Below, piece by piece: positions 41,946-46,297 of a stretch of DNA of 64,000 nucleotides. Origin of the DNA: an uncultured Nitrososphaerales archaeon (GTDB lineage: Archaea > Thermoproteota > Nitrososphaeria > Nitrososphaerales > Nitrososphaeraceae). The notes under the pieces are model-generated. The model was given only the letters and a program-made list of their open reading frames with translations. It was not told the DNA's origin and searched no databases. The stretch covers positions 256,001 through 320,000 of the forward strand of contig CAVOHZ010000003.1 of NCBI GenBank assembly GCA_963695855.1, in the 5' to 3' direction. Both the position numbers and the translations under genes were made by a program. Positions within the stretch are counted from its first letter, which is position 1; every line of letters begins with the position of its first letter.

Positions 41946-43145
41946 ATATTTTAAAAAAAATTTTTTATCGATATTATATAACTAAAAGGATTAATAATAT
42001 TTCGAAACATCAATACGTACTTAAAATCTGAAAAATTTAACGGATTTTCTTTCTGAATTAAAAACAGAAAATAATTTTGTATAAGTCAGTTCTAATGTAA
42101 AATTTGAAGATATGTACTAATATGTAGTAAGTAATTGGACAACCACATTTTTAAATATTAGTATAAATTTTCAAAACCATTTCCGACTTAATAGACAGGA
42201 ATTCCGAATATAAAATCTAGAAAAGAGACCGAAAAGATTTCCAATTTAATTAATGTATGACTAAAATTTTCATTGTCAAAATATCCCCTCATTCAATTTA
42301 TACTTTTATACATATTATAACCGCCAAATTCGGCAAGTTATATGAGATGATCAAAAATCATTCCGATAAATAAGTAAAGAGCAAATCCTAACGAGATCAA
42401 GGAAAAACCAAAAGGAATTATCTTATTTTTAAATAAAGAATAGTTAAATCTTTTTAATTTATCTGTAGTCTTTGTCTGCACATAAAAATATAGCTCTTTA
42501 AACTCTTTTTCTTTTCGAATATATTTTTAAGAACACTCTTAGAATAAAATTTTAGATTAAAATCTAGCAAGTGATAGCAGTTGTTTTTACACACCTAGAA
42601 TAAAATATATTTTTCCTTAGAAATGAAATGTTATTGGGTTTAGGATGGAATTTGAATATAATATGTTAATTTAACATATGATGAAAAAATCCTGACTAAC
42701 AAAAATTCATTTACATATTCTTTTCAAAAAAAATGTTTATTAGAATTGAAAATGATATTTTCGATATTTATAGAATATAAGAAATTTAGCCGGTGCTGTT
42801 AAGTTAACAAAAGAACTAACTATATGTTAACAAGTCCAGTAAATCCAAATCAGACAGTAAGTTATGCTCTAACAGTAGTATGATGTATGTGGGAATGGAT
42901 CTACATAAGAACTACTTACAGATTGCAGTAATGGATGAGAAAAAAAAAGTAATCAGCAATAGCAAAATAGATAATGATATACAAAAGATACGGAGATTTT
43001 TTGACCAGATCAAGAATAAAAAGAAAGATGATGATGATAGGAACTACTACAATCATCATCAAAAGGTAGTAATGGAATCATCATGTGTATGGTATAACAT
43101 ATACGAATACTTGTCTGAAGAAAGAAATCTTGATGTAATACTACC

Positions 43146-44198
43146 TGTTGTACTTACTAACATAGGTTACAATTTCATTTACTGACATGGGTAACACTTT
43201 CTAGTTCTGCTAGGAAGTGTATAAAAAATAGAAATACAAACAAGATATAATTTAATTCATGAAAAAGAATGGACTGGAGATACGGTAACTGATATTTGTA
43301 CTAGATATCAAATATCCAGAAAGATATACTACAAGTGGAGGAACAGGTACCTAAAGTATGGAATAAATGGTCTACATGATAGAAGTAGAAAACCACACAA
43401 TATACAACCTGCAAAAATAACAAAAGAGATAGAAGAAGAAATATTGGATTTACGTATAACAAAAAGATTTGGATGTAACCGGATCAGATTCAGGTTAAAA
43501 AGACTAGAGGAGATGTCACTAAGTACAAGAATCATATACAAGATATTGAAAAGACATGGTCTGAATATCCTGGAATGCAAGATAAGGAATAAAAGAAAAT
43601 GGAATAGGTTTGCAATGAAAAAACCCAATCAAATGGTACAGATGGATATTTTAGGTCCTTTTTATCTAGAAAATTGTGCTCAAAAGAACTATTTTATCAG
43701 TTGTGAAGATGATTGTTCAAGAAAGGTATCAAGTGACTGGTCTGAAAGAAAAAGAAGCATAGATGTATTGCATGTACTAGAAGACTATATTGTAGAGAAT
43801 GGGAAACCAGAAAAGGTAATGCATGATAATGGTAAACAGTTTACATCCAGAATATTTAGACGTTTTCTACAACGTAATAACATTAAAGATAAATCCATAC
43901 CTGCCAGATATCCGCAACTACAGGGAAAGATAGAAGCATATAACAAGATAGTAAAAAACGAATTTTTAGCAGTAGAAAATATTCCTAATGTAGAAGATGG
44001 AAAGAGAATGTATTCCATGTTTGTAAAAGCATACAATGAAGAAAGAGAACATGGTGGCATCAATGGTCACACACCATCTGAAATGTTTCTTAGGAAAGGA
44101 AGATTAAATAATCATAATGGTAACAAGAAAATCAAGCAGCTAAAAAGTGTTACCCATGTTGGTAAGTGAATCTGTTACCGATCTATGTAAGTACAACA
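43146..44198 (+). mobile_element. IS481-family element
   Basis: Terminal IRs TGTTGTACTTAC / GTAAGTACAACA, 6-bp target duplication ACTACC/ACTATC, and repeated subterminal motifs (TACTGACATGGGTAACACT / AGTGTTACCCATGTTGGTA). Confidence 0.93.
43217..44169 (+). CDS. IS481-family DDE transposase (HTH + rve integrase core); start is out of frame by one base in an A-run
   Basis: HTH (ICTRYQISRKIYYKWRNRY) lies in frame upstream of the listed 43444 start. Core motifs QMDI, DDCSR, HDNGKQF, QGKIE, YNEEREHGGING.TPSE. Confidence 0.88.
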
Positions 44199-45075
44199 AC
44201 TATCAAATCCAATTAAAACAAGAGCAATTGCATCAGCAAAAATAAAGACAGACAAAATAGATGCAGTAAAACTGGCAGGTTTACTGAGAGGAGGATTCAT
44301 ATCAGAATGTTATGTATCTAAAAAAACTATGGAAGTACGTGAGATGATAAGACATAGGATTGCATTAGTAAGAATGAGAACCAGATTGAAGAACAAGATC
44401 CATGGGATAATGCTTATGAAAGGAATGTGAATTAATAGTAACAATAATAGTACTGCTCGCTTCATAATAGAGTATATCAATAAACTACAAGCATTGAACG
44501 ATTATAGAATTGATGCTTACATTCATCTGATAGACTCATTTGATTATGAGATTAAACATGTATCCAAGCAGATTGCTGTATATGCAAAAGAAAAGAAGAT
44601 ATTGCAAGATTATTGTTGGTGACAGTACCTGGTATCGGATACTATTCTGCTCTTCTTCTTCTAATAAGTGAAATTGGCGATATTAACAGATTTACAGATT
44701 CAAACCATCTTTGTTCTTATGCGGGATTGATACCATCAACTCATAGTTCTGGTGGAATAACATATCATGGTAAAATAAATAAAACAGGCAGTAAATATTT
44801 GAGATGGATAATGGTTGAATGTGTAGGTTCTCATATCAGAACTCAACCTGACAGTAACATAACAAAATTCTATTATAGACTGGCAAAAAAGAAGGGAAGT
44901 GCTAAAGCAACAGTTGCAGCATCATCCAAAATGTTAAAGATAGTTTACTGGATAATGAAAGAGAAGAGAGAATATACATATACAAATAACAACAACAATA
45001 ACAATAACAATGATAAAATTGAAAAAAAGAATTAAAATTATTATTTTAGTTAAGGTGATAACAAATTATTATTAC

Positions 45076-45193
45076 AGCCACAAGACAGCTATTGAGGGAA
45101 AGCCTCGTCGATCTAACTGTGCTAACTCCTTAACAAATGGATAAAGAAGGTAATAATGAGGGAGAGCCTCGGATGGATAAGAAGTATCCGTTT
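45076..45193 (+). ncRNA. Candidate IS110/IS1111-type bridge RNA (two stem-internal loop-hairpin modules)
   Basis: Module 1 (45076-45123): agc-caca...GAGG-gaaag-CCTC...tgtg-ct. Module 2 (45135-45193): aaatggata...GAGG-gagag-CCTC...tatccgttt. Both lie in the long non-coding end downstream of the IS110 ORF. Confidence 0.65.
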
Positions 45194-45496
45194 CTACAAA
45201 TAAACAGATAATGTGGAGATGAATGAATAAAAAAAATAACAATTATGAATTAAGATAAATATTTAATAATACTTCACATGGACATGGATATCGTATGTGT
45301 ACGATTGGATCAAATTATTCATATATCTATATAACACCAAAATCAGGAATACAATAATATTCAGTATATGAGGTGAACTAGTCTTAACTTAACAGACCAT
45401 TTAATTAGTTACTATATATGCATTCAATATATTCTTAAATTTCAACGCCTAACTTGTTATAAGTATTTATTTCCACCCTGATTTAATTTTATTAGA

Positions 45497-46297
45497 TTGA
45501 AATTTCTGCTTACAGAAACGCAATTAAATATCCTAATTATTAAAATCAATCGACCTGAGGTTTTAAATGCCTTGAATTTTGAGGTAGTTTCTGAAATATC
45601 TGAAACTCTAGATTCTATTCCAGCAGATGAAGAAATAAAAGCAATTATTATCACTGGCGAAGGAGATAAATCATTTTGTGTAGGGGGAGATCTGAAATAT
45701 GTATCTAATTTAACCCCTAATGAAGCCGAATTATATGCAATTCATGTACATAAACTATTGAACAAAATTGAAAATTTTGATACCCCAGTGATAGCAGCGA
45801 TAAATGGGTATGCTCTAGGAGGTGGATGTCAATTAGCCTTAGCGTGTGATCTAAGATTTGCTTCAAATAACGCCAGAATTGGACAAACAGAGGTAACAAT
45901 TGGCATTCCTCCGGGCTGGGGTGGAACTCAGAGATTGGCTAGAATTGTTGGAGTCTCAAAAGCTAAAGAATTAATTTATACTGGCAGAATAATCTCAGCA
46001 CATGAAGCAAAAGATATCGGATTAGTAAATGAAATAATTAAATTCGAAATGAATCAATCAAATAATAATAAAATTAATCATAAAAAAAAATTAAAACAAG
46101 AATCATTTATCTCTAGATGCATTTCTTTATGTGAATTAATAACCAGGAACAATTCTTTTGCACTTAAGATAAGTAAAACCTTGATCAATAAAGCAAGAGA
46201 TGTAAATATAGAAGGTGGTCTTTTGATGGAGAGATATGGTTGTAGTCTTTGCTTTACAAATCTGAATACGGAGAAGATTAAAGATTTATTATCTTAA
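45497..46297 (+). CDS. Enoyl-CoA hydratase/crotonase family protein
   Basis: INRPEVLNALN, FCVGGDL, AAINGYALGGGCQL, GQTEVTIGIPPGWGGTQRL. Confidence 0.92.
   Translation: MKFLLTETQLNILIIKINRPEVLNALNFEVVSEISETLDSIPADEEIKAIIITGEGDKSFCVGGDLKYVSNLTPNEAELYAIHVHKLLNKIENFDTPVIAAINGYALGGGCQLALACDLRFASNNARIGQTEVTIGIPPGWGGTQRLARIVGVSKAKELIYTGRIISAHEAKDIGLVNEIIKFEMNQSNNNKINHKKKLKQESFISRCISLCELITRNNSFALKISKTLINKARDVNIEGGLLMERYGCSLCFTNLNTEKIKDLLS

Follow-up and report, generated by a model that had tools for sequence, protein, structure and literature searches.

The window analysed here is a stretch of 64,000 nucleotides from an uncultured Nitrososphaerales archaeon (assembly GCA_963695855.1, contig CAVOHZ010000003.1, positions 256,001 to 320,000), in which positions 42817-45282 are very probably a decayed insertion sequence (IS) of the IS1111 type of the IS110 family, lying in an archaeal chromosome and carrying in its right non-coding end the gene of a guide RNA (seekRNA or bridge RNA). 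The small- and large-subunit ribosomal RNAs of the host score best with archaeal Rfam models, and its genome comprises 3.55 Mb with 31% G+C. One IS110-family transposase gene has its two ends in the open reading frames (ORFs) at 42880-43185 and 44613-45035; its breaks were mapped by tblastn against an intact relative, P0001 (343 residues, from locus L018). From left to right, the element and its borders are made up as follows.

42793-42816, forward strand: left flank (GTGCTGTTAAGTTAACAAAAGAAC), the left target half, in the end of an IS6-like element; it flanks all five left ends of the element in the genome and is uninterrupted elsewhere
42817-42823, forward strand: core TA (42817-42818) and ACTAT, together the 7-bp left extension, from empty and occupied sites in genomes G010 and G000
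42824-42830, forward strand: left subterminal repeat ATGTTAA (ATGTGAA in intact relatives), inverted with respect to TTCACAT at 45273-45279, from alignments
42852-42861, forward strand: left-end internal motif AGACAGTAAG, twin of the 5' side of RNA loop 2, covarying in relatives
42880-43143, forward strand: N-terminal part of the transposase, residues ~1-82, DEDD domain (tblastn against P0001; PF01548)
43144-44199, forward strand: foreign 1056-bp IS inside the transposase gene, with an rve integrase ORF at 43444-44169 and CTA duplicated at 43141-43143 and 44200-44202
44200-44589, forward strand: middle part of the transposase, with an in-frame TGA at 44428-44430 (tblastn against P0001)
44613-45035, forward strand: C-terminal part of the transposase in another frame, with PF02371 and GLIPSTHSSG (tblastn against P0001)
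45049-45134, forward strand: RNA domain 1, with helices P0 and P1, loop 1 and the P2 hairpin (RNAalifold on a MAFFT alignment, pair counts, fold)
45083-45092, forward strand: 5' side of loop 1, right-target guide, in which ACAGCTAT (45085-45092) is the reverse complement of ATAGCTGT (core A and right flank)
45108-45118, forward strand: 3' side of loop 1, left-target guide GATCTA (45110-45115), identical to left flank and core, then AC(T), handshake-like
45138-45190, forward strand: RNA domain 2, with helix P3, loop 2 and the P4 hairpin (RNAalifold on a MAFFT alignment, pair counts)
45144-45156, forward strand: 5' side of loop 2, AAGAAGGTAATAA (relatives AAGACGGTAAT), same-strand twin of the left-end motif
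45172-45184, forward strand: 3' side of loop 2, with the left-donor guide ATGGATA at 45173-45179, the same sequence as right tip CATGGA and core TA (permutation)
45260-45271, forward strand: conserved box of A/T-rich sequence (TATTTAATAATA) a short way upstream of the right inverted repeat, found by eye in right-junction strings
45273-45284, forward strand: right end, with TTCACAT (45273-45279), GGA (45280-45282) and then CA where relatives have the core TA

The intact relative P0001 matches PF01548 with 88.1 bits, PF02371 with 88.5 bits and NF033542 ('IS110 family RNA-guided transposase') with 242 bits at a cut-off of 140, while the window fragments reach 75.3 bits with PF02371 and 24.4 bits with PF01548, below the cut-off of 29. 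Matches in PDB are limited to IS621 (8wt6, E 1.9e-9) and ISCro4 (9t56, E 2.5e-9), over the C-terminal half. The motif GL-P----SG that marks IS1111-type transposases (Siddiquee et al., section 6, PMC11187229), here in the form GL-P----S(T)G, is found as GLVPSTHSSG in P0001 and as GLIPSTHSSG in the window. An earlier first-pass annotation of this DNA had placed the gene in the IS110 family, its type in IS1111 from the position of the RNA downstream of the gene and its host among the archaea, and had regarded the transposase copy as dead; these assignments are borne out by the matches above, by the ribosomal RNA models and by three breaks in the gene, namely the foreign IS, the in-frame TGA and a frameshift between 44589 and 44613. 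The genome contains two RNA-bearing copies of the element, that of the window and a sister copy at locus L002, both with broken genes, and three left-end stumps; L002, likewise decayed, is 89% identical to the window over the right end. No intact gene of the window subfamily was found in the host genome, in which the other IS110-family genes are at most 47% identical, and the subfamily looks extinct there. The nearest plasmid-borne transposase is 38% identical. Because of the three gene breaks, one mutated subterminal repeat and a genome without an intact subfamily gene, the window copy cannot move by itself.

The ends of the element are defined by comparison with relatives. In genome G010, of the same genus, the element sits in a repeat with more than 40 copies, four of which are empty sites that read AGCGTTAGC-TA-TGGTCAG; the occupied site reads AGCGTTAGC-TA, followed by the element from ACTATATGTGAAC to TTCACATGGA and then by TA-TGGTCAG. 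From these empty and occupied sites, the core is TA, the left extension 7 bp, the right extension 3 bp and the subterminal inverted repeat 7 bp, which gives the layout TAACTAT + ATGTGAA ... TTCACAT + GGA and 1355 bp for an intact copy, with no target duplication generated beyond the shared core. The repeat ATGTGAA/TTCACAT is at the low end of the IS1111 range, which is given as 7-17 bp by Durrant et al. (PMC11208160) and as usually 11-13 bp by Siddiquee et al. (PMC11187229). By the same comparison the right tip of the window copy is TTCACATGGA at 45273-45282. The non-coding end between the stop codon (45033-45035) and the right tip at 45282 is 247 nt long, and 63 nt lie between the left tip at 42817 and the ATG at 42880, close to the about 250 and about 50 nt of the first-pass annotation. 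In one lineage (L101, L102 and L104) the right extension is, by eye, apparently 4 bp.

Two further features of the right end were observed. At the right junction, CA replaces the core TA in the window copy (45283-45284) and in two unrelated relatives (L109 and L121), and the left junctions of these copies have TA; such a CA could have been left by recombination with a target that had another core than the donor. In the window copy and its relatives, the A/T-rich box takes the form TTTAATA, TTAAAA or TATAAAAA, 1-6 nt upstream of the right inverted repeat, and is a possible candidate for an outward-reading archaeal TATA box. If so, transcription would begin a few bases past the tip and, in a circle, would pass the junction and reach the left end and the transposase gene, and the box would act like the junction promoter of the bacterial relatives.

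The RNA at 45049-45190 consists of two domains, in each of which the same hairpin, UGAGG-NNNNN-CCUCG, caps an internal loop. The closing helix P0 pairs GTTAAGG (45049-45055) with CCTTAAC (45128-45134), P1 pairs CCACA (45078-45082) with TGTGC (45118-45122), with one pair lost in the window by a G>C change at 45122, and P3 pairs TGGATA (45138-45143) with TATCCG (45185-45190); the two hairpins are TGAGG-GAAAG-CCTCG (P2, 45093-45107) and TGAGG-GAGAG-CCTCG (P4, 45157-45171). The first-pass annotation had recognized both hairpins, at 45094-45106 and 45158-45170, which direct reading confirms, and the two outer stems, which are real (P1 and P3); it had missed P0. Domain 1 measures ~70-86 nt and the two domains together ~142 nt. 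The hairpin pattern TGAGGNNNNNCCTCG occurs twice in the 64-kb window, both times in the RNA, and no match was found in any of 100 shuffles. The minimum-energy fold of 146 nt reproduces P0-P4, and both hairpins are kept in relatives that are ~72% identical. In the window, domain 2 has drifted by two 3-nt insertions and a C>A change in the shared motif.

Comparison of homologues identified with a covariance model built from seven sequences shows that this structure is conserved. Among 29 distinct sequences, 93.0% of the alignment cells are paired, compared with 34-50% in slid controls, and double-sided changes are found in 9 of 20 pairs, compared with 3.5±1.2 after shuffling (0 of 500 shuffles as high). 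All helices contain compensatory changes, the stem covariation among homologues that the first-pass annotation had proposed to look for; in the G010 type, for instance, the last P0 pair is changed from G-C to U-A. A second set from another family (11 distinct rows) gave 98.2% paired cells and 6 double-sided pairs, compared with 2.0±0.8, and RNAalifold recovered P0-P4 from a plain, independent MAFFT alignment of 16 sequences. A local hairpin, GGAU...AUCC, considered in place of P3, was rejected: it is paired in 123 of 145 cells and P3 in 141 of 145, and GC/AU exchanges occur only in P3. At locus L035 (G010:C160), a tandem duplication within the RNA has produced three UGAGG...CCUCG hairpins, which suggests that the two-domain RNA with its identical hairpins may itself have arisen by duplication.

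Of 151 genomes sampled from the family, 17 contain matches to the covariance model, a tally that counts one unpublished genome (G081); they fall in 7 of 18 genera. In the class, 20 of 151 sampled genomes and 5 of 12 families have matches (1/3 genomes in f1, 8/80 in f13, 1/9 in f21, 1/8 in f25 and 8/17 in f26), and no match was found in the 7 other families (33 genomes). Two complete genomes carry 24 and 20 RNA copies. An IS110-family ORF or its remnant lies directly upstream on the same strand at 41 of 53 inspected matches; 3 of the remaining 12 had less than 300 nt upstream, and the rest are low-scoring or solitary.

Both sides of loop 1 are hypervariable across the alignment and lie between invariant stems. 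On its 5' side the loop gives the reverse complement of the core and of the DNA right of the element, and on its 3' side it repeats the left flank, the core and the first bases of the element, so that in the RNA the complement of the top strand lies 5' of the complement of the bottom strand. Examples of the right guide and the flank that it faces are as follows.

L103: 5' side of loop 1 ATTTTGGGAT, right flank ATCCCAAAAT, match of 10 nt
L115: 5' side of loop 1 TGACCATAT, right flank ATATGGTCA, match of 9 nt
L101: 5' side of loop 1 TGTCTGTA, right flank TACAGACA, match of 8 nt
L104: 5' side of loop 1 TCTGTGTA, right flank TACACAGA, match of 8 nt

Left guides on the 3' side include GATCTA (L100), TAGCTA (L099), GAGCCTA (L106 and L107) and GTACTA (L104). 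The correspondence was evaluated by permutation with one representative per guide and junction class, which for the right side left 17 of 30 aligned matches; omitted were duplicates or rows whose right end was not found (L098, L124, L034, L118, L125 and L126), the window copy (L116), rows in which the right inverted repeat was not found (L119, L120 and L112) and poorly aligned rows (L111, L114 and L127). The longest match between right guide and right junction averages 5.65 nt for a copy's own junction and 3.28 nt for those of others at the 17 loci, and that of the variable part of the left guide 3.55 and 1.17 nt at the 11 loci with a left end found; in both cases 0 of 10000 permutations were as high. 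The covariation of loop 1 guides with insertion sites, which the first-pass annotation had put forward as a check, thus exists on both sides. The non-self values are high because some lineages share a target (L103 with L106 and L107). The distant genome G276 provides a replication, with four guide types that have matching flanks by eye: four copies of type 4, spread over three sites, carry the guide TTGTAATTAT opposite ATAATTACAA and match over 10, 9, 7 and 9 nt, and the type 3 guide AAACATAT faces ATATGTTT at four sites, with 8 nt, 7 nt and two matches that contain a mismatch or gap. In every copy with a recognizable left end, the core in loop 1 is followed by AC, the two bases with which that end begins; both are nearly invariant, which makes this a match and not covariation. 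As both sides of loop 1 match and covary with the halves of the insertion site, and as empty sites confirm the junctions, the identification of loop 1 as the target-binding loop is supported.

The position of the RNA directly after the stop codon, with two G+C-rich hairpins in an A+T-rich genome, would also suit a cis-acting element of the 3' untranslated region or a transcription terminator of the transposase mRNA without guide function. We consider this very improbable, as the hypervariable loop sides between invariant stems track the flanks of each copy, which a terminator would not do.

Several side observations concern the guides of other copies. L105, L106, L107 and L118, from three genomes, carry the guide UUUUCGGAU, which in three of them has a conserved central mismatch to its flank, facing ATCCCAAAA in L106 and L107 and ATCCTAAAA in L118; the guide of L103 matches that target perfectly, and the flank of L105 has a matching G. 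The target predicted from the guides of the lineage of L103, L106 and L107, GAGCC-TA-TCCCAAAA, has an uninterrupted copy in the host genome, where an IS4/5-type element ends (DUF4096 ORF; L002 1790-2100; also right of a paralogue of the group called B, G000:C8:375729). In the complete 2.0-Mb genome G276 (G276:C1, L134-L142 and L148-L151), which has 24 RNA matches, one guide type, of which nine copies were retrieved, targets AACTA-TA-TGTGAATAA, which in sister elements is the left subterminal repeat, and pairs of RNA matches lie 1325 nt apart there because of this targeting. Eight of these nine copies share the same frame change near transposase residue 113, which could be a programmed frameshift or could mean that the copies are mobilized in trans.

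The 3' side of loop 2 tracks the right tip. It reads ATGGATA in the window and, in step with the tip, ATGGATTAC in L101 and L102, ATAGATTAC in L104, ATAGATAT in G276 type 3 and ATGGGTA(T) in L103 and L105-L108; over 17 loci, the mean longest match to the right tip is 6.94 nt for self and 4.76 nt for non-self (0 of 10000 permutations). The ATGGATA at 45137-45143 belongs to P3 as its 5' strand, and it does not change with the tip. The first-pass annotation had read a recurrence of ATGGATA at the element end as a possible donor-guide identity; this stands for the loop 2 copy at 45173-45179, which matches the right tip and core and covaries with them, and falls for the copy at 45284-45290, which lies across or after the boundary. 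By eye, two bases past the core in the donor loop match the right target half in 4 of ~17 lineages; the full match is found in L131, L132, L134 and L143-146 and in no f1 lineage.

The 5' side of loop 2 was unexpected. Its 9-11 nt recur unchanged, on the same strand, at a site 36 nt inside the left end; the two vary together, as AGACGGTAA in L115 and L105, AGACGGTAG in L101 and L106, AGACAGTAG in L104, ATGGTACTG in G276 type 3 and AGATAGCAT in G276 type 4. At 14 loci the longest match averages 7.50 nt for self and 5.52 nt for non-self (0 of 10000 permutations) and 4.07 nt to the left end's reverse complement. The shared 9-mer occurs exactly twice in each of six elements; no sequence complementary to it was found inside these six elements, and just two matches with one mismatch were seen, one of them outside the element. 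The left-end motif begins 30 nt after the start of ATATGTGAA, ATATGT(G/T)AA, in all four f1 elements and the window and 23-27 nt after it in two G276 types; its distance to the start codon, measured by eye, varies from 5 to 19 nt. Taken together, these distances point to a link with the element end rather than with translation.

This identity may be a variant feature. Tentatively, and with the odds somewhat against it, loop 2 could be a loop that synapses the element ends and not an IS621-like donor loop, with its 3' side reading the right tip and core and its 5' side reading the same-strand site 36 nt inside the left end. Siddiquee et al. (PMC11187229) state that how IS1111-type elements recognize their ends and excise is unknown, and such a loop would, if it exists, be an RNA-based answer to that question. 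Alternatively, the shared 9-11 nt might be a binding site that the guide RNA and the transposase mRNA leader have in common, serving autoregulation, or both might pair with an antisense RNA as in ISPpu9. A precedent for an identity of left end and loop 2 is Ssr9/Asr9 of ISPpu9, an IS110-family element of Pseudomonas putida; unlike the archaeal RNA, Ssr9 is not a guide RNA and is dispensable for transposition, and the guide RNA of ISPpu9 lies upstream of the gene (PMC12288879).

The guides of the window copy itself predict the 13-mer target GATC-TA-TAGCTGT, which occurs once in the genome, uninterrupted and within the end of an IS6-like element (0.13 expected by composition), so that loop 1 still perfectly matches a live target site. 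Forms with one mismatch, mostly GAGCTATAGCTGT, number 14 in the genome, and at least 7 of the 12 listed share the context GGTGCTGTTAACTTAAGGAAA...GTGAAGGTTCTATTC. The sequence around these sites is that of the left end of a repeat of ~720 bp, which carries a DDE_Tnp_IS240 (IS6-type) ORF (G000:C8:280423-281140, L128). In L002 the target is split around the element, with GATCTA followed by ACTAT on the left and CATGGA followed by TATAGCTGT on the right, and all five left ends of the element in the genome adjoin the left half of the target.

A number of observations weigh against the guide RNA reading, or fall short of what it predicts. At the window copy, the left flank has one mismatch to its guide, and the right flank, in which TTCACATGGA is followed by CA-TGGATATCG, has a longest match of 4 nt to its own right guide; the expected right target half TAGCTGTGAATGTTCT has 3 matches with up to three mismatches in the window, none of them near the element and all within chance. 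Rearrangement of the right flank after insertion would explain this, as would placement of the copy by the RNA of another copy. The flank match is weak or absent in L108, L122, L110 and L123, which are low-scoring or solitary matches. A Rfam search of 42500-45800 with E up to 10 gave nothing but an unrelated weak match outside the element. A search for expression data gave five soil runs with small shares; the four that were examined contained only transposase fragments of relatives and a repeat right of the element, with 44978-45274 uncovered, which says nothing either way about transcription. The alignments behind both sets of pair counts (A5 and A7) were fitted to the model and are biased towards the structure. 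The folding energy is unexceptional, with z -0.53 for 265 nt (62 of 200 shuffles fold as well) and z -1.30 for 146 nt (22 of 200 as good), and the case for a structure beyond chance therefore rests on comparison. These z-scores would fit a chance resemblance in a decayed element, a reading to which we give practically no credence and which is refuted by the conservation of the RNA in five families of the class, its compensatory covariation and the permutation results of 0 in 10000.

The remaining point against concerns the donor. A right-donor guide complementary to the left-tip TAACTAT is absent from loop 2, whose 5' side AAGACGGTAAT is not complementary to it. The only candidate for this guide, TATAGTTA upstream of loop 1, was rejected, as it overlaps the covarying P0 (GTTA) and does not follow an ACT>ACC change in the left tip. 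The two-loop bridge RNA of the first-pass annotation is thus upheld for the target guides of loop 1 and the donor guide on the 3' side of loop 2; a second donor guide was not found, and the right flank of the window copy is mismatched. The lack of a right-donor guide favours the view that domain 1 alone is the functional guide, a target-only seekRNA, with domain 2 as a scaffold for processing or protein binding and the tip match as a by-product. For ISEc11 the Discussion of Siddiquee et al. (PMC11187229) reports that the short seekRNA, of 70-100 nt, is enough for transposition and calls the role of the long form unknown, and the GGAUA on the 3' side of loop 2 could pair locally with UAUCC in 123 of 145 cells. 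However, changes on the 3' side of loop 2 go along with those of the right tip (0 of 10000 permutations), L104 and G276 type 3 have G>A changes (ATAGAT) that follow the tip yet break the local hairpin, and P3 fits better than that hairpin (141 vs 123 of 145 cells) and has compensatory GC/AU changes. Moreover, the two post-core bases of loop 2 that by eye match the right target half in L131, L132, L134 and L143-146 are what cross-talk between donor loop and target predicts. We consider a target-only seekRNA unlikely on this evidence.

For a guide RNA with a target loop and a partial donor loop, we infer transcription, protein binding and catalysis along the following lines. A DEDD/Ser recombinase would bind the RNA; the element would be excised as a circle with the junction TTCACATGGA-TA-ACTATATGTGAA; and loop 1 would choose a target, with which the circle would recombine at TA; for the guide type of the window this target would be GATC-TA-TAGCTGT in the terminal region of the IS6-like element.

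The RNA guides of IS110 and IS1111 elements were published in 2024 (Siddiquee et al., PMC11187229; Durrant et al., PMC11208160; Hiraizumi et al., PMC11208158). According to Durrant et al. (PMC11208160), bridge RNAs are predicted in the right ends of 93% of the ISfinder IS1111 members, with the donor-binding bases often in a multi-loop. The Discussion of Siddiquee et al. (PMC11187229) describes IS1111 elements as abundant in bacteria and archaea, and 662 archaeal IS110 recombinases have been catalogued (bioRxiv 10.1101/2024.06.21.599552). Because such guide RNAs and archaeal IS110/IS1111 elements are already published, the kind of system is known and the archaeal host is not new in itself. Our literature search found no study devoted to an archaeal bridge or seek RNA; the supplements and figures of the 2024 papers, which possibly list archaeal members or IS1111 donor matches, lay outside its scope.

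As described by Siddiquee et al. (PMC11187229), IS1111 elements carry their inverted repeats in a subterminal position, with extensions of 7 bp on the left and 3 bp on the right, and generate no duplication, their seekRNAs are 70-100 nt (short) or 145-170 nt (long; Discussion), and the complement of the top strand lies 5' of that of the bottom strand, the reverse of IS110 types. The archaeal element resembles the IS1111 seekRNA elements of that study (ISEc11, ISPa11, ISKpn4 and ISPst6) in the non-coding region that lies downstream of its transposase gene, the two extensions, the lack of duplication beyond the shared core, the order of the strand matches with two guides that overlap at the insertion point, and RNA size, with domain 1 close to the short form and domains 1 and 2 to the long form. 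Compared with the members as presented there, it differs in its archaeal host, in its 7-bp repeat, in an RNA for which no tool showed sequence similarity and in a second domain that matches both element ends, and the archaeal system is known from sequence alone.

With the IS621 bridge RNA, as presented by Durrant et al. (PMC11208160) and Hiraizumi et al. (PMC11208158), the archaeal RNA shares target and donor internal loops and target guides that each cover the core dinucleotide, and the recombinases share a DEDD domain and a Tnp domain with a Ser-Gly motif. The bases beside the target guide that match the donor are placed like the handshake guides of IS621 (PMC11208158). Unlike IS621, the archaeal RNA lies in the right end and not the left, its strand-match order is reversed and its core is TA, not CT (PMC11208160, PMC11208158); the 5' side of its donor loop, again unlike IS621, is not complementary to the donor beside the core and is identical to the site 36 nt inside the left end. 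Like IS4321-type elements, the archaeal element inserts into the ends of other mobile elements, its targets being the ends of an IS6-like and of an IS4/5-like element, the G010 repeat with its more than 40 copies and, within G276, sister elements at their left end. One IS4321 copy, the only bacterial member examined, has a non-coding segment complementary to its right flank, as here, has a 12-bp inverted repeat, unlike the archaeal element, and contains no direct repeat of at least 8 nt that links its 5' leader and non-coding region.

IS110/IS1111 RNA-guided recombinases are under development as genome-writing tools. The archaeal clade offers many natural guide variants with occupied and empty sites and apparently intact copies (full-length single-frame matches), including those in the genomes with 20-24 RNA matches. 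It combines a clear target loop and a covarying tip guide with the unexpected covarying match of loop 2 to the left end, which makes IS1111 end recognition accessible to compensatory mutation.

The finding is ordinary for its genome, in which the window copy is a fossil insertion sequence nested among other insertion sequences. The foreign 1056-bp IS in the transposase gene has three genomic copies that are 99.5-99.7% identical, with inverted repeats of the TGTTGTACTTAC type at its ends and a 3-bp CTA duplication, and it looks recently active because near-identical copies occur elsewhere in the genome. Directly right of the element, 45295-45395 is a ~100-nt repeat with at least 20 genomic copies that are 74-81% identical, and it ends in a motif of the CTGTTAAGTTAA type like that of the IS6-like end. 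Three more IS110-family paralogue groups with intact ORFs are found in the host (G000:C10 and C8; L005-L013), with ORFs of 362 (three identical copies), 359 and 378 amino acids that are 37-47% identical to the C-terminal part of the window transposase. Group B (359 amino acids), a second IS1111-like paralogue, inserts ~22 nt upstream in the same IS6-like end, at GGCTC-TG-TTAAGTTAAC, and L002 accordingly lies 22 nt downstream of a right-end remnant of group B.

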